A stretch of DNA of 60,890 nt from Clostridiales bacterium (GTDB lineage Bacteria; Bacillota; Clostridia; Lachnospirales; Lachnospiraceae), in assembly GCA_014799595.1 (NCBI GenBank), contig JAAVHR010000022.1, positions 1-60,890 of the forward strand, written 5' to 3'. A model generated the notes under the pieces. The model worked only from the letters and a program-made list of their open reading frames with translations, ran no database searches and was not told where the DNA came from. Numbering within the stretch: position 1 is the first letter of the stretch; the number at the start of each line of letters is the position of its first letter. Made by a program: the position numbers and the translations under genes. Below are positions 1,237 through 60,890 of this stretch, piece after piece.

Positions 1237-1812
1237 GATTGTTAAAAGTTTAAAAAGTGGGTTATTAATCCAATTCAAAGCAACTGAAACCTTACAAAGT
1301 GGGTTGTAACAATTGATAAAACGATGCACTATAATTTTAAATGGAAGCTACAATCAAAATCGTAAAAAAATAGGGTAGAAGAGAATGAATCTCAACTACC
1401 CTTTAGCTATTTTATTAATTTTAAGCCTCAAGAGAAATCTTGTAGGGAAAGGTTTTTTGCGGGAATATTATATCCATATGGGATATTAAAGAGCATGGGC
1501 TTATGAGAATTTGAGAGAATTGATATTTGAAAATGGAAAACTTATGGAAACTTTTGATCATAGTGAAATGGCAAAGAAATTAAGAAAGGAAATAGATGCT
1601 CAAACAAGCAATAAAGAAAGATCAAATGGAAACGTAAATATATCAATGTTTATTGAAAAAAGTTTTTTTTAAATATGGAAGATAAGGCTTGGTGGATTAA
1701 ATGAAATATAGTTTTTGTGATATATAAAGGAGAGGGGATATGTAAACATATCCCCTTAAAAAGTATGAAAAAATGAAAAAAAGTGTGCAACTATTCAAAA
1801 CCCCGAACTGAA

Positions 1813-1828
1813 GTAACTGAACAGTTAC
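1813..1828. repeat. Solo GTAAC-box near-palindrome GTAACTGAACAGTTAC
   Basis: Two element termini abut with no cargo between them. This is the same motif as the ends of the mosaic elements. Confidence 0.5.
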
Positions 1829-1922
1829 AAAAAGTTTATTGGTAATGAACCATGCAAGAATAGTATAGAAAAAAAGTGTGAAGAAAATGTGTAGAAAATG
1901 CGAAAAAAATAAGAAAAATGTG

Positions 1923-2209
1923 ATTATTGTTCTCTCACAAGCTTGACACTTGCTGTCAAGCTATGTGCCAAGAACATAGAACAGCCAAGATAACAGTTCA
2001 GGTAGGTCCGCACACTCCGCTGTGCAGACCGTAAAAAAGACTAAAACAGGATTGGAATTGGGCAATTTACATGCGAAGCTTGCCCAATTCCGTAACAGGT
2101 CAGTCCCTTGGCTGAACTGTTACCAGCTAAGAATCCAGCCCTTCGCCCAAGGCGAATTATAGATTGGCTGGATTCCGTTACTGTTAGCACCGTAGGTGTG
2201 AACAGTAAC
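1923..2209 (+). mobile_element. Family-2-variant GTAAC-box element carrying a nested family-3 element
   Basis: Reverse complement of the 14217-14361 element apart from an insertion. Flanked by a perfect 8-bp direct repeat AAAATGTG (1915-1922 and 2210-2217). The right end is GTGAACAGTAAC and the left end is degenerate (ATTATTGTTCTC). Confidence 0.85.
1990..2123 (+). mobile_element. Family-3 GTAAC-box element nested inside element 1923-2209
   Basis: Inverted copy of 6737-6872. It interrupts the host sequence ...GAACAGCCAAGAATCCAGCC..., which is intact in the 14217-14361 copy. Flanked by CAGCCAAG (1982-1989) and CAGCTAAG (2124-2131). Confidence 0.85.
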
Positions 2210-2308
2210 AAAATGTGAAAAGTAAAAAGTTCCATGGTTAGTACTTGGAATTCTTGTCAGGAAATAGTAAAATTAGAGTAGGTAAAAGAAAAAGAAGGGG
2301 GCGTACTT

Positions 2309-2878
2309 ATGGCAAAAGAAAAGTGGGAAGTGGCAGGATATGTTTTTGCAGATAAACAAGATTATGAAAAGGCAAAGAAAGAAGCAGATTCCATCTCTTA
2401 TATTAAAGAAAGAACAAATTGGAAGGATAAACAACAACTTTTAAAGATATACAATAAAGCAGTAGACAGCAAAATGTTTCATACCGTTTTGGGATATGAA
2501 TTTATGCACCAGCTTCAAGCTATGATAGCAAAGAGTGGAGTTGTAGAAGAAGAGTATATAAAATCCATACCAATTTACAAACAGGAAAGCGGGCAGGAAC
2601 TTCCAGAAGATGCACAAGAGGCTGCAAAGCTTGCAAATCAGTATCGTAGACTTTATGAGATGGCAAAAGAAGAAAAGAAAAGACTAAAAATTGTAGTTGG
2701 ATTTTTAATTTTAGCAGTTTGTCTAATGATGGGTCTGGCATATACAAATTATAGAACTTATGATGAGTCTGCTGTGTTGAATAAATATGCAGGCTGGGAG
2801 GCAGAGTTAGAGCAGAGAGAAGCAACAATTACTGCAAAAGAGAAAGAATTAGGAATTAAAGCAAATGATACAGAATAA
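2309..2878 (+). CDS. Hypothetical single-pass membrane protein with coiled-coil regions
   Basis: 189-aa ORF preceded by the RBS GAAGGGGG. It has one hydrophobic segment (IVVGFLILAVCLMMGLAY). I recognise no family. Confidence 0.6.
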   Translation: MAKEKWEVAGYVFADKQDYEKAKKEADSISYIKERTNWKDKQQLLKIYNKAVDSKMFHTVLGYEFMHQLQAMIAKSGVVEEEYIKSIPIYKQESGQELPEDAQEAAKLANQYRRLYEMAKEEKKRLKIVVGFLILAVCLMMGLAYTNYRTYDESAVLNKYAGWEAELEQREATITAKEKELGIKANDTE

Positions 2879-2922
2879 TTCACAGAAAATTAATAGAGGA
2901 GTGTTATAATAGAAAGAAATAC

Positions 2923-3067
2923 GTTACTGTTCACAGGTAGTACTTTGCACTTGCTGCAAAGTACGTAAGAATAAGTAGTGGTAGAAAAGAATCCAGCCTT
3001 TCGCCGAAGGCGAATTCCTAATAGGCTGGATTCCGTTACTGTTTGCACCGTAGGTGTGAACAGTAAA
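2923..3067 (+). mobile_element. Family-2 GTAAC-box element (AGGTAG hairpin, GAATCCAGCC...GGCTGGATTC hairpin, terminal hairpin)
   Basis: Starts GTTACTGTTCAC and ends GTGAACAGTAA(A). A perfect 8-bp direct repeat AGAAATAC lies at 2915-2922 and 3068-3075. The element sits 25 nt upstream of the response-regulator start codon. Confidence 0.85.
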
Positions 3068-3091
3068 AGAAATACTAAAGGAGGTAAGGAT

Positions 3092-3769
3092 ATGACTCAG
3101 CTAAAAGTGATGGTCGTTGATGATGAAAGCAGAATGCGAAAATTAGTAAAGGATTTTCTTGGAAAAAAAGGATTTGAAGTAATAGAGGCAGAAAATGGAG
3201 AAGAAGCTGTAGATAAATTTTTTGAACAAAGTGATATTGCTTTGATTATTTTAGATGTTATGATGCCGAAAATGGATGGGTGGCAGGTGTGTAAGGAAAT
3301 CCGGCAATATTCAAAAGTTCCTATTATTATGCTTACAGCAAAAAGTGACGAAAAAGATGAACTTCTTGGGTTTGAGCTTGGAATAGATGAGTATATCTCA
3401 AAACCTTTTAGTCCTAAAATATTAGTGGCAAGAGTAGAAGCGATTTTAAGAAGAACAAATACATTAGGCGATGAGAAAATAGAAATTGGCGGAATTATCA
3501 TTAATAAGACAGCAAGGGAAGTGACTGTAGATGATGAAATAATTGATTTAAGTTATAAAGAATTTGAACTTTTAACATATTTTGTGACAAATCAGGGTGT
3601 AGCATTGTCCAGAGAAAGAATTTTAAATAATGTATGGAATTATGATTATTTTGGAGATGCAAGAACCATTGATACCCATGTAAAGAAATTGCGAAGTAAA
3701 TTGGGACAAAAGGGAGATTGTATCAAAACTGTCTGGGGAATGGGATATAAGTTTGAGGCAGAGAAATAG
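3092..3769 (+). CDS. OmpR-family response regulator (receiver plus winged-helix domains)
   Basis: Receiver motifs are present (MVVDDE, ILDVMMPKMDG, LTAK) with an OmpR-type C-terminus (TIDTHVKKLRSKL...GMGYKF). I placed the start at ATG 3092, after the RBS AAGGAGG. The ORF-track start at 2978 lies inside the repeat element. Confidence 0.9.
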   Translation: MTQLKVMVVDDESRMRKLVKDFLGKKGFEVIEAENGEEAVDKFFEQSDIALIILDVMMPKMDGWQVCKEIRQYSKVPIIMLTAKSDEKDELLGFELGIDEYISKPFSPKILVARVEAILRRTNTLGDEKIEIGGIIINKTAREVTVDDEIIDLSYKEFELLTYFVTNQGVALSRERILNNVWNYDYFGDARTIDTHVKKLRSKLGQKGDCIKTVWGMGYKFEAEK

Positions 3770-3779
3770 GAGAGGAAAA

Positions 3780-5348
3780 ATGAGACTGAAGCATAATTTT
3801 CATTCTATGCGTTTCCGGCTAACCTGTATGCTTGCTGTTTTAATTTTGGCTACTTTCTTTCTATGTTGGTTTGCAAATCAGATGTTTCTTCCGATGTATT
3901 ATCAGTATAGCAAAACAAATACGCTAAAACAAACTTATATTAAAGTGTATGAAGAGTTAAATAAACTGAATAATGGGGAAGATGAAGATACTGGCCAAAT
4001 GGAATTATCTTTAGAAAAATGGAGTGAAGATAATAATTTAAGTATATATGTTATGAATTGGAGCCGTATTATACAAAATGGACAATGGAGCTATTTGGGA
4101 GAGTTTGTTTATCCCCAAAAAGAGGTATTAAATGAACTGGAAAGAAAACAGATATTATCCTTAATGGGGAAAAATATCGGAATATTAAAAGGTGAATCCG
4201 GATCCCAGGATAGATATTCTTTATATTCCTGTGATAATTATAATATTGTCCGGATTAATGACGACCGATTGGATTCTGAGTATTTGGAATTGGTGGGAGA
4301 GATGCAGGTAGGAGATACAACACATACTATATTTATGAGAAGCAATTATGAGAGTATTCAGGAAAGCGTACAATTATCCAGCCAATTTTTAATTTATGCT
4401 GGAATGGTTGCCACATTTCTTGGAGTTGTAGTTATGTTTGCGATTATCGGCTCTTTTACAAAACCAATTAAAAAACTTTCACATATAGCAGGTGAAATGG
4501 CAGAATTAAAATTTGAGACAAAATATACAAAACAACGCAAAGATGAAATTGGAGATTTAGGGCATTGTATTAATTTGTTGTCAGAAAAACTGGAGCAGAC
4601 AATATCAGAACTAAAAGCGGCGAATAATGAGTTACAGTCAGATATTGAGAATAAGATTCAAATTGATGAAATGCGGAAGGAATTTTTGTCTAATGTATCT
4701 CATGAATTAAAGACACCTATTGCATTAATTCAAGGATATGCAGAAGGATTACAGGAAAATATCAATGAGGATGAAGAAAGCCGGGAATTTTATTGCGATG
4801 TTATTATTGATGAAGCAAATAAAATGAACAAAATGGTTAAAAAACTCTTGAATTTAAATCAAATTGAATTTGGGAATAACTTAGTAGAATTTGAGCGTTT
4901 TGATATTGTCACAGTAATCCAGTCTGTAATAAATTCTACCCATATTTTGTTTGAACAGAAGGAAGTTACATTGATTTTTGAATCTTATGAGCCAATTTAT
5001 GTATGGGCGGATGAATATTCTATAGAAGAAGTGGTAACAAATTATATCAGTAATGCATTGAATCATGTGGATGGGGAAAAAATTGTAGAAGTTAAGATTA
5101 CCAAACAAGCTGGAAAAGTTCGCATATCTGTATATAATACAGGACAATCTATTCCAGATGAAGATTTGGAAAAAGTATGGATTAAATTTTACAAAGTTGA
5201 CAAAGCAAGAACCAGAGAATATGGTGGCAGCGGAATTGGGCTATCTATTGTAAAGGCAATTATGAATTCCCTACATCAGGAGTGTGGTGTGAGAAATTGT
5301 TCTAATGGAGTAGAATTCTGGTTTGAGTTAGATATGCAGGATGACTAA
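3780..5348 (+). CDS. Sensor histidine kinase (2 TM, HAMP, HisKA, HATPase_c)
   Basis: Has an H-box (FLSNVSHELKTPIA), an N box (NALNH) and a G box (GGSGIGLSIVK). ATG 3780 follows the RBS AGGAGAGG. Confidence 0.9.
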   Translation: MRLKHNFHSMRFRLTCMLAVLILATFFLCWFANQMFLPMYYQYSKTNTLKQTYIKVYEELNKLNNGEDEDTGQMELSLEKWSEDNNLSIYVMNWSRIIQNGQWSYLGEFVYPQKEVLNELERKQILSLMGKNIGILKGESGSQDRYSLYSCDNYNIVRINDDRLDSEYLELVGEMQVGDTTHTIFMRSNYESIQESVQLSSQFLIYAGMVATFLGVVVMFAIIGSFTKPIKKLSHIAGEMAELKFETKYTKQRKDEIGDLGHCINLLSEKLEQTISELKAANNELQSDIENKIQIDEMRKEFLSNVSHELKTPIALIQGYAEGLQENINEDEESREFYCDVIIDEANKMNKMVKKLLNLNQIEFGNNLVEFERFDIVTVIQSVINSTHILFEQKEVTLIFESYEPIYVWADEYSIEEVVTNYISNALNHVDGEKIVEVKITKQAGKVRISVYNTGQSIPDEDLEKVWIKFYKVDKARTREYGGSGIGLSIVKAIMNSLHQECGVRNCSNGVEFWFELDMQDD

Positions 5349-6173: not shown

Positions 6174-6308
6174 GTAACTATTTAGGTAGAAACACGCATT
6201 TACTGCGTGTTTTGTAAGAAAAAGTAAATTTTGTAATGTTTAAGCCCCTTCGCCGAAGGCGAATTATTATGGGCTTAAACGTAACTGTTCATGGTTCTGA
6301 ACAGTTAC
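6174..6308 (+). mobile_element. Type-1 GTAAC-box element, short form (modules A, C, D; module B absent)
   Basis: Starts GTAACTATTTAGGTAG and ends TGAACAGTTAC. Flanked by ATTTCTGG (6166-6173) and GTTTCTGG (6309-6316). Confidence 0.85.
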
Positions 6309-6362: not shown

Positions 6363-6734
6363 ATGGAATTTACAGAGAGAAAAAGAACATTATTTTTGGG
6401 ATTACCAATATGTTTTACCAAGTATCATATTACAGATGAAAAGATTACAATCAAACGTGGTTTTTTAAATCTGGTTGAAGATGATGCTTTTATGTTTAAA
6501 ATTCAGGATGTACGTTTAAAGAAAAGTTTTTTTGAAAGAATTTTTGGGATGGGAACAGTGGTTTGTTACACTGGAGATGTGACACATCCAGAATTAGAAA
6601 TGATTCATATCAAAAATACAGATAAGATTAAAGAGTTTATTATGGAAGCATCAGAAGAAGCCAGAATTAAAAGAAGAACACTGCATACGATGAATATTGA
6701 TGGAGATTTTAGCGGCGGACAAGAAGTTGAATAG
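6363..6734 (+). CDS. Bacterial PH-domain (bPH_2 / YdbS-like) protein
   Basis: 123-aa ORF. The ITDEKITIKRGFLN...QDVRLKKSFFERIFGMGTV pattern is typical of bPH_2 domains. Confidence 0.7.
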   Translation: MEFTERKRTLFLGLPICFTKYHITDEKITIKRGFLNLVEDDAFMFKIQDVRLKKSFFERIFGMGTVVCYTGDVTHPELEMIHIKNTDKIKEFIMEASEEARIKRRTLHTMNIDGDFSGGQEVE

Positions 6735-6736
6735 TA

Positions 6737-6872
6737 GTAACAGTTCAGCCAAGGGCTGACCTGTTACGGAATTGGGCAAGCTTCGCATTGTAAATTGCCC
6801 AATTCCAATCCTGTTTTAGTCTTTTTTACGGTCTTGCACAGCGGAGTGTGCAAGACCTACCTGAACTGTTAC
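6737..6872 (-). mobile_element. Family-3 GTAAC-box element (three internal hairpins)
   Basis: Starts GTAACAGTTCAG and ends CTGAACTGTTAC. A perfect 8-bp direct repeat GAATAGTA lies at 6729-6736 and 6873-6880. Confidence 0.9.
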
Positions 6873-6901
6873 GAATAGTAGTACAAAATGTAAAAAAATA
6901 G

Positions 6902-8252: not shown

Positions 8253-9542
8253 ATGTTTGCAGATAGTGCTAAGATATATATACGTTCTGGTAAAGGCGGA
8301 GATGGTCATGTGAGTTTTCGCAGGGAATTGTATGTGGCAGCTGGAGGACCAGATGGTGGTGATGGCGGCAGGGGCGGCGATTTGATTTTTGAAATAGATG
8401 AGGGTTTGAATACCTTGAATGATTTCCGTCATGTCCGTAAGTATTTTGCTACAGATGGAGAGCCAGGTGGAAAGAGAAATTGTCATGGTGCAGATGGTGA
8501 GAATAAAGTCGTGAAAGTCCCACCAGGAACTGTTATCAAAGATGCAGAGACAGGAAAAGTTATTGCTGATATGAACTATGAGAACCGGAGAGAAGTGATT
8601 TTAAAAGGTGGTCGTGGTGGAAAAGGAAATCAACACTATGCTACACCTACTATGCAGGTTCCAAAATATGCACAGCCTGGTAAGCCGGGAATGGAAATGA
8701 CAGTTATTTTGGAACTGAAAGTAATTGCAGATGTGGGACTTGTGGGATTCCCTAATGTAGGAAAGTCTACATTTTTATCACGGGTGACTAATGCAAAACC
8801 AAAGATTGCCAATTATCATTTTACCACATTGAATCCGAATCTTGGTGTTGTTGATTTGGAAGGAACAGATGGATTTGTAATTGCGGATATTCCTGGATTG
8901 ATTGAGGGAGCAGCCGAGGGGATTGGTTTGGGTCATGAATTTTTAAGGCACATTGAACGGACAAAATTGATGATTCACATGGTTGATGCTGCTTCTACAG
9001 AAGGAAGAGATCCTTTGGTGGATATACAGGTGATTAATGGAGAATTGGAGGCTTACAATCCGGAACTTGCAAAAAGACCACAGGTAATCGCAGCAAACAA
9101 AACAGACATTTTTTATGGTGATGAAGAAGAAACAGTTATATCTTTGTTGAGAGATGAATTTGAACCAAAAGGAATACCAGTTTTTCCGATTTCTGCTGTT
9201 AGTGGAAAAGGTGTCAAAGAATTGTTATATTATGTCAAAGAACAGTTAAACGAAATTGGTGATGAACCAGTTGTATTTGAAAAAGAATATTTTGTAGAAG
9301 ACTTAATTGTAGCAGATGAACCGTTTACAGTAGAAAAAGACGAAGAAGAGAATGTGTTTGTGGTAGAAGGTCCGAGAATTGAAAAGATGTTGGGTTATAC
9401 AAACTTGGATTCTGAAAAAGGATTTGAATTTTTCCAAAGATTTTTAAAAGAGAGTGGCATTTTAGAACAACTTGAAGCATTAGGAATACAAGATGGTGAT
9501 ACCGTAAGAATGTATGGTTTACAATTTGACTATTATAAGTAA
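8253..9542 (+). CDS. obg: GTPase Obg/CgtA
   Basis: Has the Obg fold (GGDGGRGG), G motifs (GFPNVGKST, DIPGLIEGA, NKTD) and a C-terminal OCT domain. The stop codon TAA (9540-9542) lies inside the repeat element. Confidence 0.95.
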   Translation: MFADSAKIYIRSGKGGDGHVSFRRELYVAAGGPDGGDGGRGGDLIFEIDEGLNTLNDFRHVRKYFATDGEPGGKRNCHGADGENKVVKVPPGTVIKDAETGKVIADMNYENRREVILKGGRGGKGNQHYATPTMQVPKYAQPGKPGMEMTVILELKVIADVGLVGFPNVGKSTFLSRVTNAKPKIANYHFTTLNPNLGVVDLEGTDGFVIADIPGLIEGAAEGIGLGHEFLRHIERTKLMIHMVDAASTEGRDPLVDIQVINGELEAYNPELAKRPQVIAANKTDIFYGDEEETVISLLRDEFEPKGIPVFPISAVSGKGVKELLYYVKEQLNEIGDEPVVFEKEYFVEDLIVADEPFTVEKDEEENVFVVEGPRIEKMLGYTNLDSEKGFEFFQRFLKESGILEQLEALGIQDGDTVRMYGLQFDYYK

Positions 9543-9834
9543 CTATTCAGGTAGAAACACGCATTTACTGCGTGTTTCGTAAGAAAAAATGAAAGTTGAT
9601 TGCTATGTGCTACGCACTCTCGCAATCACCAACTGTATTCGTATTTCGGGCTGTCGCCCTATATACTCATACAGTTTAGCCAGCCAAATATCTATATTTC
9701 TTTGCAAGCAAACTTGCACGAAATATAGCCGTTTGTCAGGACTTTCATAGTAAATTTTGTAATGTTTAAGCCCCTTCGCCGGAGGCGAATTAGTATGGGC
9801 TTAAACGTAACTGTTCATGTTTCTGGACAGTTAC
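9539..9834 (+). mobile_element. Type-1 GTAAC-box mosaic element, full length (modules A-B-C-D)
   Basis: Starts GTAACTATTCAGGTAG and ends CTGGACAGTTAC. A perfect 8-bp direct repeat TATTATAA lies at 9531-9538 and 9835-9842. Confidence 0.9.
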
Positions 9835-12077: not shown

Positions 12078-12372
12078 GTAACTATTCAGGTAGAAACACG
12101 CATTTACTGCGTGTTTCGTATGAAAAATGAAAGTTGATTGCTACGTGCTACGCACTCCCGCAATCACTAACTGTATTCGTATTTCGAGCTGTCGCCCTAC
12201 ATACTCATACAGTTTAGCCAGCCAAATGTCTATATTTCTTTGCAAGCAAGCTTGCACAAAATATAGCCGTTTGTCAGGACTTTCATAGTAAATTTTACAA
12301 TGTTAAAGCCCCTTTGCCGAAGGCGAATATTCATGGGCTTAAACGTAACTGTTCATGGTTCTGAACAGTTAC
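12078..12372 (+). mobile_element. Type-1 GTAAC-box mosaic element, full length
   Basis: Near-identical to 9539-9834. Flanked by CTAAGTAC (12070-12077) and CTAAATAC (12373-12380). Confidence 0.9.
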
Positions 12373-12813: not shown

Positions 12814-12894
12814 GTAACAGTTCAGCCAGAAAAAATATTTTTAGCCAATTTGTATATTCTGGCACTTTATGAATGGACTTGGCTGAACTCTTAC
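12814..12894 (+). mobile_element. Family-4 GTAAC-box element
   Basis: Starts GTAACAGTTCAGCC and ends GGCTGAACTCTTAC. A perfect 8-bp direct repeat GAATTTTT lies at 12806-12813 and 12895-12902. Confidence 0.9.
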
Positions 12895-13451: not shown

Positions 13452-14141
13452 ATGCATTATCATGTATTAACATTATTTCCGGATATGATAGAACATGCAA
13501 TGGGACAGAGTATTACAGGCAGAGCCTTGCAGAACAGCTTGTTGAGTATGGATGTTATCAATATCCGGGATTTTTCAGAGAATAAATATAATAAAGTGGA
13601 CGATTATCCTTATGGTGGTGGTGCTGGGATGGTTATGCAGCCAGGACCAGTGTTTTGTGCGTATGAAAAGGTTAAAGAAAATATAGAAAAACAAGGAAGA
13701 GTGAGCAAACCAAAGGTTGTATATATGACACCACAAGGAAAAGTTTTTCACCAAAAAATTGCAAAAGAGCTTGCAAAAGAAGAAGATTTGGTGATTCTTT
13801 GTGGGCATTATGAGGGAATTGATGAAAGAGTTCTGGAAGAAATTGTAGATGAGAATATTTCTATAGGAGATTATATATTAACTGGCGGAGAATTGCCGGC
13901 GTTGGTGGTAATGGATTCCATAGCAAGATTACTTCCAGGAGTGTTACACAATGAAGAATCTGCCCAGTTAGAGAGCTTTTCTAATAATCTTTTGGAATAT
14001 CCTCAGTATACACGGCCGGTAGAATGGCATGGAAAAAGAGTTCCGGAGGTATTATTGTCTGGCCATCATGCTAATATAGAAAAATGGAGACAACAACAGT
14101 CGTTGGAACGAACAAAAGAAAGGCGGCCGGATTTGTTGTAA
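13452..14141 (+). CDS. trmD: tRNA (guanine37-N1)-methyltransferase TrmD
   Basis: Contains HVLTLFPDM, YPYGGGAGMVM and GHYEGIDERV. The stop TAA (14139-14141) lies inside the repeat element. Confidence 0.95.
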   Translation: MHYHVLTLFPDMIEHAMGQSITGRALQNSLLSMDVINIRDFSENKYNKVDDYPYGGGAGMVMQPGPVFCAYEKVKENIEKQGRVSKPKVVYMTPQGKVFHQKIAKELAKEEDLVILCGHYEGIDERVLEEIVDENISIGDYILTGGELPALVVMDSIARLLPGVLHNEESAQLESFSNNLLEYPQYTRPVEWHGKRVPEVLLSGHHANIEKWRQQQSLERTKERRPDLL

Positions 14142-14371
14142 CAGTTCAGCCAGAAAAAATATTTTTAGCCAATTTGTATATTCTGGCACTTTATGAATGA
14201 GCCCAGCTGAACTGTTGTTACAGTTCACACCTATGGTGCAAACTGTAACGGAATCCAGCCTATTAATAATTCGCTTTCAGCGAAAGGCTGGATTCTTGGC
14301 TGTTCTATCTTCTTGGCACATAGCTTGACAGCAAGTGTCAAGCTTGTGAGTGAACAGTAACGAACTGTTAC
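14138..14371 (+). mobile_element. Family-4 GTAAC-box element with a family-2-variant element inserted in its right terminus
   Basis: The left part matches 12814-12885. The right TIR CTGAACTGTT|AC is split by the insertion at 14217-14361. The outer flanks are GATTTGTT and GACTTGTC (6 of 8 match). Confidence 0.8.
14217..14361 (-). mobile_element. Family-2-variant GTAAC-box element, nested
   Basis: Starts GTTACAGTTCAC and ends GTGAACAGTAAC. A perfect 8-bp direct repeat GAACTGTT lies at 14209-14216 and 14362-14369. That target is itself the TIR of the host element. Confidence 0.9.
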
Positions 14372-14857: not shown

Positions 14858-14885
14858 TAGTAACTAATTTTAACAGCAAAAATAA

Positions 14886-17357: not shown

Positions 17358-17407
17358 GTGTACTGTGATATGGAATAAGACGAGAAAGAATGGGGTAAGA
17401 ACAGAAG

Positions 17408-21133: not shown

Positions 21134-21161
21134 GTAACTGTTCATGGTTCTGAACAGTTAC
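21134..21161. repeat. Minimal GTAAC-box hairpin GTAACTGTTCATGGTTCTGAACAGTTAC
   Basis: 11-bp stem with a 6-nt loop, identical to module D of the type-1 elements. Confidence 0.85.
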
Positions 21162-21323
21162 AAAACACCCATGCCTTGTGGGCTACGGCATCACCATAAA
21201 TATATTCGCATGGGTGTTTCATAAACGGGGATGCACACAAGTGCAAAAGCAGCACTTGGTGCTTTACGAACCTTGCAGCAAAGTGCAAGGTTCTACCTAA
21301 AAAGAGTGAATATATAGAAATAA
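21162..21323 (-). repeat. Hairpin mosaic adjoining the minimal element, ending with an AGGTAG-hairpin module in inverted orientation
   Basis: Contains AAACACCCATGC...GCATGGGTGTTT, AGCACTTGGTGCT and GAACCTTGCA-GCAAAG-TGCAAGGTTC followed by TACCT. The segment from about 21274 to 21323 recurs inverted at 60841-60890. Confidence 0.7.
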
Positions 21324-51939: not shown

Positions 51940-52234
51940 GTAACTATTCAGGTAGAAACACGCATTTACTGCGTGTTTCGTAAGAAAAATGAAAGTTGAT
52001 TGTTACGTGCTACGCACTCCCGCAATCACTAACTGTATTCGTATTCTGGGCTACCGCCCTACATACTCATACAGTTTAGCCAGCCAAATGTCTATATTTC
52101 TTTGCAAGCAAGCTTGCACGAAATATAGCCGTTTGTCAGGACTTTCATAGTAAATTTTGATTGTTCTAAGCCCTTCACTGAAGGTGAATTTTCATGGGCT
52201 TAGAACGTAACTGTTCATGGATCTGAACAGTTAC
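51940..52234 (+). mobile_element. Type-1 GTAAC-box mosaic element, full length
   Basis: A perfect 8-bp direct repeat GGAAATAG lies at 51932-51939 and 52235-52242. Confidence 0.9.
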
Positions 52235-58502: not shown

Positions 58503-58638
58503 GTAACTATTCAGGTAGAAACACGCATTTACTGCGTGTTTCGTAAGAAAAAAGTGAAAGTTGATTGTTCTAAGCCCTTCGCCAAAGGCGAATTTTCATG
58601 GGCTTAGAACGTAACTGTTCATGGTTCTGAACAGTTAC
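58503..58638 (+). mobile_element. Type-1 GTAAC-box element, short form (module B almost entirely deleted)
   Basis: A perfect 8-bp direct repeat AATATTTA lies at 58495-58502 and 58639-58646. Confidence 0.9.
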
Positions 58639-58649
58639 AATATTTATAA

Positions 58650-58676
58650 GTAATGTTCATGGTTCTGGACAGTTAC
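58650..58676. mobile_element. Minimal GTAAC-box hairpin with its own flanking repeat
   Basis: GTAATGTTCATGGTTCTGGACAGTTAC is flanked by ATTTATAA and ATTTCTAA (7 of 8 match). Confidence 0.55.
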
Positions 58677-60840: not shown

Positions 60841-60890
60841 TTATTTCTATATATTCACTCTTTTTAGGTAGAACCTTGCACTCTGCTGCA
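60841..60890 (+). repeat. Start of another AGGTAG-hairpin element, cut by the window edge
   Basis: Reverse complement of about 21274-23 (...TTTTTAGGTAGAACCTTGCACTCTGCTGCA). Confidence 0.7.

Follow-up and report, generated by a model that had tools for sequence, protein, structure and literature searches.

Two nested non-coding miniature transposons of a gut Clostridia bacterium, each flanked by a separate 8-base target duplication

Bacterial miniature transposons (MITEs), such as Correia of Neisseria, RUP of Streptococcus pneumoniae, ERIC/IRU, Nezha of cyanobacteria and MITEAba12, are short, non-coding, intergenic and strongly folding. They carry inverted repeats, produce a duplication of fixed length, reach high copy numbers and are polymorphic between strains, and nesting is expected where their density is high. 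The REP/BIME repeats and the pneumococcal BOX repeats are also modular intergenic hairpin units whose modules vary between copies, as do those of the elements described here. To our knowledge, REP/BIME and BOX repeats lack target duplications; REPs are linked to RAYT (Y1) enzymes. We know of few MITEs that have been attributed to the IS66 family. Within that family, ISDge4 of the ISBst12 group is reported to have the ends GTAACTGCTCAGCA and an 8-bp repeat (PMC12898284).

We analyzed a stretch of 60,890 nucleotides from a gut Clostridia bacterium, called the window below, which has about 35% G+C, a strong positive GC skew and nearly all of its genes on one strand. The boxes GTAACNGT and ACNGTTAC occur 32 times in it, compared with about 7 expected, and bound several repeat families; the repeat system takes up 4.2% of the window, a high density compared with the bacterial MITEs named above. 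The window elements also differ from those MITEs in that their termini and 8-bp duplication indicate a different parent family, several sub-families use one end type, and the right end is a self-contained hairpin that survives alone after deletion. At 1923-2209, in the 1.1-kb spacer downstream of the tmRNA gene and before ORF 2309, we confirmed a nested pair in which a 134-base non-coding mobile element lies within a 153-base one, each with its own 8-base target duplication. The features of the pair, and the two reference copies with which it was compared, are as follows.

1915 to 1922, unstranded: left target-site duplication of the outer element, AAAATGTG, 8/8 identical to 2210-2217.
1923 to 1989, plus strand: left arm of the outer MITE, B' type, 96% identical to the reverse complement of 14294-14360, in which the left inverted repeat ATTATTGTTCTC occupies 1923-1934 and hairpin 1 about 1936-1967, followed by a spacer whose last bases are CAGCCAAG.
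1982 to 1989, unstranded: left copy of the inner target duplication, CAGCCAAG, which belongs to the outer element.
1990 to 2123, plus strand: inner MITE ("family 3"), 134 nt, 96.3% identical to the reverse complement of 6737-6872, with the inverted repeats ATAACAGTTCAG and CTGAACTGTTAC, hairpin 1 (2005-2030), hairpin 2 (2054-2091) and a terminal hairpin (2092-2123).
2124 to 2131, unstranded: right copy of the inner target duplication, CAGCTAAG, with C>T at 2128.
2132 to 2209, plus strand: right arm of the outer MITE, 86% identical to the reverse complement of 14215-14302, with hairpin 2 (2131-2175), which contains an inner TTCGCC..GGCGAA hairpin, and the terminal hairpin GTTACTGTTAGCACCGTAGGTGTGAACAGTAAC (2177-2209).
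2210 to 2217, unstranded: right target-site duplication of the outer element, AAAATGTG, 8/8 identical to 1915-1922.
6737 to 6872, minus strand: reference copy of the inner family, with a perfect GAATAGTA duplication at 6729-6736 and 6873-6880.
14217 to 14361, minus strand: uninterrupted paralogous B' copy, the reference for the outer element, with GAACTGTT at 14209-14216 and 14362-14369 (8/8).

Just upstream of the pair are smpB (274-741), then the tmRNA gene (851-1194; tag peptide AEDNLAYAA) and, at 1817-1832, a 16-nt palindrome, GTAACTGAACAGTTAC, without an obvious duplication. A 42-codon ORF is called within the same spacer in related contigs.

The outer element spans 1923 (ATTATTGTTCTC...) to 2209 (...GTGAACAGTAAC). 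The inverted repeats of its family are GTTACTGTTCAC and GTGAACAGTAAC, and the left terminus is degenerate here, with 3/12 positions of ATTATTGTTCTC changed relative to the family form; terminal inverted repeats are thus found in the inner element and in the outer family, with decay at the focal outer left end. The inner element begins with ATAACAGTTCAG (G>A at base 1) and finishes with CTGAACTGTTAC. The outer element measures 145 nt, or 153 nt with the extra 8-mer, and no ORF of at least 80 amino acids was found in 1923-2209.

A preliminary description of this DNA had taken 1923-2209 to be the inverted counterpart of 14217-14361, interrupted by an inverted copy of 6737-6872, and the alignments bore this out. 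Against the reverse complement of 14217-14361, the only large gap was a single one of 142 columns, the combined length of the inner element (1990-2123) and one 8-mer. As AAG is present on either side, the aligner's placement of this gap at 1987-2128 is equivalent to 1990-2131, and the gap boundaries fall on the GTAAC-box termini of the inner family. The arms aligned at 96% over 67 nt on the left (1924-1990) and at 86% over 88 nt on the right (2124-2211), and the inner element differed from the reverse complement of 6737-6872 by 1 mismatch and 4 gap positions. CAGCCAAG runs directly into AATCCAGCC in the reference copy as well as in 10 further B' copies, and the uninterrupted target ...GAACAGCCAAGAATCCAGCC... 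is present in those 10 outer-type copies. The flanking direct repeat of the outer element proved as perfect as had been claimed (chance rate of an 8/8 match at spacing 287, computed in the window, 6.6 × 10−5). The further claim that both sets of duplications are preserved is correct for the outer set and needs a qualification for the inner one, in which the 8-mer is duplicated but imperfectly, CAGCCAAG and CAGCTAAG agreeing at 7/8 positions (chance rate of a match of at least 7/8 at spacing 134, computed in the window, 6.6 × 10−4).

The two B' copies had also been presented as a before-and-after pair with an intact reference. They form such a pair by family but not by locus, 14217-14361 being a paralogue and not the ancestral empty site; and the reference, although uninterrupted, is itself nested, lying with its duplication GAACTGTT within the right terminus of a third element.

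14138 to 14371, plus strand: third MITE, host of the reference copy, of an 81-nt type like 12814-12894, with the flanks GATTTGTT and GACTTGTC (6/8).

Its sister at 12814-12894 has a perfect GAATTTTT duplication. With its insert, 14138-14371 is a second nested pair in the window, and its junctions differ in a same-species MAG (L051 1-225), which suggests conversion between copies.

An alternative reading takes the structure at 1923-2209 to be a mosaic, formed by homologous recombination or gene conversion among dispersed copies without a second transposition. Recombination among copies does occur, as seen in solo hairpins that remain once the stretch from the left repeat to its internal copy has been deleted, in the junction beside the reference copy that differs between the window and L051, and in a Clostridiales-1 module (see below) present in the window and missing at the orthologous A element of the MAG (locus L021). 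However, the end points of the interruption coincide exactly with the inverted repeats of a full family-3 element, the bracketing 8-mer is single in uninterrupted copies, and the B' spacer and family 3 have no homology to guide recombination. We consider a mosaic origin very improbable.

Next, we examined the families to which the two elements belong. Full-length copies were collected from the window and, in addition to it, from about 540 kb of same-species or related DNA, with 72 loci retrieved by scanning species-representative genomes for the 28-nt hairpin GTAACTGTTCATGGTTCTGAACAGTTAC. Most of the 72 loci belong to one MAG, named "uncultured Clostridiaceae bacterium," whose identity to the window is about 96%; the others include Lachnospiraceae, Eubacteriales and Ruminococcus MAGs and Faecalicatena orotica, of which strain DSM 1287 has this hairpin box. 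Over 75 distinct copies from five sub-families, about 49 had 8/8 duplications and about 15 had 7/8, against the same chance rate for 8/8 (6.6 × 10−5), so a target-site duplication of constant length (8 bp) is present at most copies. The counts by sub-family were as follows.

B': 12 copies, 8/8 in 7 and 7/8 in 3.
B: 9 copies, 8/8 in 5 and 7/8 in 2.
Family 3: 12 copies, 8/8 in 7 and 7/8 in 2.
A-short: 42 copies, 8/8 in 28 and 7/8 in 9.

In related metagenomes, where the repeat system amounts to roughly hundreds of copy-equivalents, contigs with differing flanks break exactly at 1924, 1990/1991, 2123 and 2209, and the termini are therefore fixed independently. Each family shares a fold of left inverted repeat, hairpin 1, hairpin 2 and terminal hairpin (z = −6 to −9), the terminal hairpin pairing the right repeat with an internal copy of the left repeat. 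The DNA fold of the inner element has z = −5.9, and 10/38 base pairs in the family-3 hairpins show compensatory changes. Among the 75 reconstructed 24-nt targets, 11 hold a GTAAC/GTTAC box compared with a background of 4.3%, so that insertion into or beside the ends of other elements is enriched about 3.4-fold. The nested elements are members of a very abundant miniature-transposon family in a gut Clostridia bacterium.

Several further features of the repeat system were recorded along the way. Relative to the G-rich (leading) strand, 49 copies are co-oriented and 23 anti-oriented (AGGTAG end taken first). Solo 28-nt hairpins of the form GTAACTGTTCATGGTTCTGAACAGTTAC stand at 21134-21161 and 58649-58676 without an obvious duplication; together with the palindrome at 1817-1832, these probably represent minimal elements or collapsed ones. 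Another family, about 187 nt long (21134-21323, 60841-60890 and L051 721-906), has a left end of CTATATATTCAC...AGGTAG-hairpin and the 28-nt box hairpin as its right end.

We then compared strains that are about 96% identical, beginning with a sister of the focal elements.

2923 to 3067, plus strand: sister B-type MITE, 700 bp downstream of the nested pair, with the duplication AGAAATAC at 2915-2922 and 3068-3075.

Three alleles occur at this site. The window has the full 145-nt element, metagenome runs X3 and X5 have an empty site, and L021 and run X2 have a solo hairpin of 32 nt. The sites in X3 and X5 are precisely empty, with a 153-nt skip that equals 145 nt plus 8, and the solo hairpin, GTTACTGTTCACACCTATGGTGTGAACAGTAAC, has the same duplication as the full element. 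In addition, the A element at 6174-6308 is absent from L021, which has a single 8-mer there. Conversely, at two places where the window shows one 8-mer only, ATGGAATA (17393-17400) and ACTAATTT (14863-14870), L051 contains additional elements. The copy duplicating ACTAATTT in the MAG belongs to the family of about 187 nt. Sister copies, but not the focal pair, thus showed presence/absence differences with precisely empty sites, and the mobility of the sister copies is recent. At 2923-3067, a mechanical ORF list contains a GTG-start ORF, 2978-3769, that overlaps the MITE; its true start is probably the ATG at 3092.

The census and the empty sites also bear on whether the repeats are transposons at all. 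They could be read as structured repeats of the REP/BIME or BOX kind, or as small RNA genes, with the flanking 8-mers coincidental: hairpin formation is strong (z = −6 to −9) with compensatory changes, the elements are modular and intergenic, and a sister family holds an Rfam sRNA motif. Against this, most of the 75 copies carry perfect 8-bp duplications, precise empty sites are observed, the termini are identical to IS66-family ends, and the focal elements match no Rfam family even at E ≤ 1. Between them, the census of duplications and the empty sites refute this reading, to which we give practically no credence. Assignment to the REP/BIME or BOX type was rejected likewise, the window elements having duplications and empty sites.

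Because the ends begin with GTAA and come with an 8-bp repeat, we tested the IS66 family on real elements, examining matches in Geobacillus, Clostridia and metagenomes. Single-ORF IS66-family (ISBst12-type) elements share the 8-bp duplication of the MITEs and have termini that match theirs, GTAAC[T/A][G/A]TTCAG or GTTACTGTTCAC. One such element, on the Geobacillus plasmid pHTA426, encodes a protein that matches DDE_Tnp_IS66 (E = 1.9 × 10−64), zf-IS66 and DUF6444, has the ends GTAACTATTCAGCCC and GTATCTATTCAGCCC and the 8-bp duplication AACTCGTC, and is annotated "IS66-like element ISGka4 family transposase." IS66-family elements on low-G+C gut and Clostridium-type contigs (L080, L161-L165) terminate in GTAACTGTTCAGCTAT or GTAACTATTCAG. 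Furthermore, 51/80 metagenome relatives have GT[ATG]ACT[AG][CT]TCAG at both ends, 1.3 to 2.1 kb apart (most about 1.55 kb), and nine metagenome relatives have perfect 8-bp duplications. The MITE ends GTAACTATTCAGG, GTAACTGTTCAG, GTAACAGTTCAGCC and GTTACTGTTCAC fit this motif at 11 to 12 of 12 positions, and we therefore filed the elements as MITEs with ISBst12-type IS66 ends.

Set beside the ISBst12 group as a whole (the pHTA426 copy, ISDge4 and the Clostridium elements), the MITE ends are identical over 12 to 14 nt to GTAACT[A/G][C/T]TCAG, the GTTAC variant of the terminus occurs there too, and the target duplication is 8 bp in both, so that an IS66/ISBst12 derivative is matched in terminal repeats and in direct repeats. 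The two differ in size and content: the window elements are 81 to 295 nt long without an ORF, whereas the IS66 elements are about 1.55 kb with a DDE_Tnp_IS66 transposase of 480 to 500 amino acids, and the interiors of the MITEs (three hairpins) are unrelated to those of the IS elements examined. From the shared termini, we infer that the mobilizing enzyme would be a single-ORF IS66-family (ISBst12-type) DDE transposase, presumably encoded in this organism. With a Geobacillus IS66 transposase as the tblastn query, neither the window nor about 540 kb of DNA from this or related species yielded an IS66-family transposase; IS copies are usually lost from MAG assemblies. No element of 600 to 4,000 nt with GTAAC-type ends and a duplication of at least 7/8 was found in 600 kb, and multi-copy ORFs among the loci were considered as transposases and rejected, since they are not transposases. 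None of the MITE families was found in the IS-bearing contigs (L076-L080, L161-L165) or in 80 metagenome IS loci; a single 22-nt match (E = 0.002) was discounted. IS200/IS605-type hairpin elements, which lack inverted repeats and duplications, and IS630/Tc1-type MITEs, which have a TA duplication, were rejected on anatomy. On contig L163, an intact IS66-family element (3140-5089) is preceded, 38 nt before its left end, by a solo right end (…TAGCTGAATAGTTAC) at 3084-3101, which resembles what an earlier copy at that position would have left behind.

A search of a plasmid collection with a family-A copy (distant-mode search) gave no match, and full-text searches of a paper library found no description of these GTAAC-box families, which appear to be undescribed, yet of a known kind.

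The Rfam sRNA motif of the sister family is the Clostridiales-1 RNA, Rfam RF01699 (Weinberg et al. 2010, PMC2864571). The window has four matches to it (9590-9747, 12128-12285, 51990-52147 and 1-122), all on the minus strand and opposite to the local genes, and 4/4 fall inside family-A GTAAC-box MITEs, three of which are listed here.

9539 to 9834: family-A MITE hosting an RF01699 match, 8-bp duplication TATTATAA.
12078 to 12372: family-A MITE hosting an RF01699 match, 8-bp duplication CTAAGTAC/CTAAATAC.
51940 to 52234: family-A MITE hosting an RF01699 match, 8-bp duplication GGAAATAG.

The matched sequence belongs to a 160-nt module, ATGAAAGT...ACTTTCAT (8-bp inverted repeat), that always lies between hairpin 1 and hairpin 2 of the A family, flanked by hairpin1-CGTAAGAAAAA and AGTAAATTTTG. 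The module is missing from the short A copies 6174-6308 and 58503-58638, and it is present in the window and missing from the orthologous A element of the same-species MAG (L021 7114-7248). The Rfam candidate sRNA "Clostridiales-1" is thus an optional 160-nt internal module of the sister MITE family A. The focal elements belong to the same repeat system but do not match the model: no match to RF01699 or any other Rfam family was found in 1780-3100 at E ≤ 1.

At the focal site itself, the MAG (L021 97-112) reads AAAATGTG-GTTATTGTTCACTCGC-AAAATGTG, in which GTTATTGTTCACTCGC is a 16-nt remnant of the left end, and run X2 has the same remnant allele. Both copies of AAAATGTG surround the remnant, and the outer insertion therefore predates the strain split, i.e., it is old; the outer element was therefore later almost wholly deleted in the MAG lineage, the end points of the L021 deletion having a 4-nt microhomology, ACAA, in common. 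No empty outer site at this locus was found among the strains compared, and no allele with the outer element present and the inner one absent was found at the orthologous locus, where the X3 and X5 contigs break inside repeats. One contig with a 142-nt skip, in X5, has a depth of 20 compared with 6 for single-copy DNA and is multi-copy, not locus-specific.

The sequential transposition proposed in the preliminary description is supported as an element-in-element insertion, and we infer that both events took place at this locus. A rival account needs only one event here: either the nested composite formed elsewhere and arrived as a unit by means of the outer inverted repeats, or CAGCCAAG in B' is a preferred target of family 3. 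We searched runs X2, X3, X5 and X9 for the junctions (window 1962-2018 and 2086-2166). Left-junction contigs in all four have about 2 to 3 times the single-copy depth and diverge downstream, and a right-junction unitig in X2 with the unmutated CAGCCAAG (C at 2128) has a depth of 70 compared with 22.7 for single-copy DNA; the main X2 strain has only the remnant at the orthologous site, the composite being absent. The enrichment of insertions at the ends of other elements (11/75 targets) also speaks for the rival account. However, a search of 600 kb for a further copy of either junction gave none, and the right junction was not found at an identity of at least 93% in the four runs. Moreover, the junction contigs of X3, X5 and X9 are not intact composites, one being cut off 19 nt into the inner element and another carrying a solo hairpin only, and depth ratios are soft evidence with several related genomes per metagenome. 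The junctions on other contigs could reflect propagation of a composite or of pieces of it, a hot spot or rearranged descendants. As outer/inner junctions occur elsewhere in related metagenomes, nesting in situ at 1923-2209 is not proven, but we judge the single-event account to be rather unlikely.

Our preferred reading, in which we have considerable confidence, is that the pair consists of two nested non-autonomous DNA transposons (MITEs), moved in trans by the putative IS66-type enzyme in two successive insertions that were followed by decay. Both elements lack coding capacity and therefore must be moved in trans. A 145-nt B' element would have integrated between the tmRNA gene and ORF 2309, and filling in of the staggered cut at AAAATGTG would have produced the 8-bp outer duplication. 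A 134-nt family-3 element of the same superfamily would then have entered the outer spacer at the foot of hairpin 2, duplicating CAGCCAAG. Point decay after the insertions would account for C>T at 2128, G>A at 1990 and the three changes in the outer left repeat, the last of which probably immobilized the outer element. Recombination between the left repeat and its internal copy accounts for the solo hairpins at occupied sites.

The nested pair is an ordinary, unsurprising outcome of the very high density of MITEs in this genome. More broadly, we put forward, with confidence evenly balanced by doubt, that the GTAAC-box repeats are a large, recently active and apparently undescribed MITE superfamily of gut Clostridia, driven by an ISBst12-type IS66 transposase, in which the Clostridiales-1 RNA is an optional MITE module and not a free-standing sRNA gene, compensatory change maintains the hairpins, and fresh insertions tend to land in or beside older ends. 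If this is true, nested arrays like 1923-2209 would be a predictable product and not an accident. The analysis places an abundant repeat system of gut Clostridia in the single-ORF branch of the IS66 transposon family. It reinterprets Clostridiales-1, a candidate sRNA of Rfam, as MITE cargo, and it warns annotators that ORF calls may extend into MITEs, as the GTG-start ORF does at 2923-3067. Finally, the MITEs are polymorphic between strains about 96% identical and therefore break short-read assemblies and can be used as strain markers.
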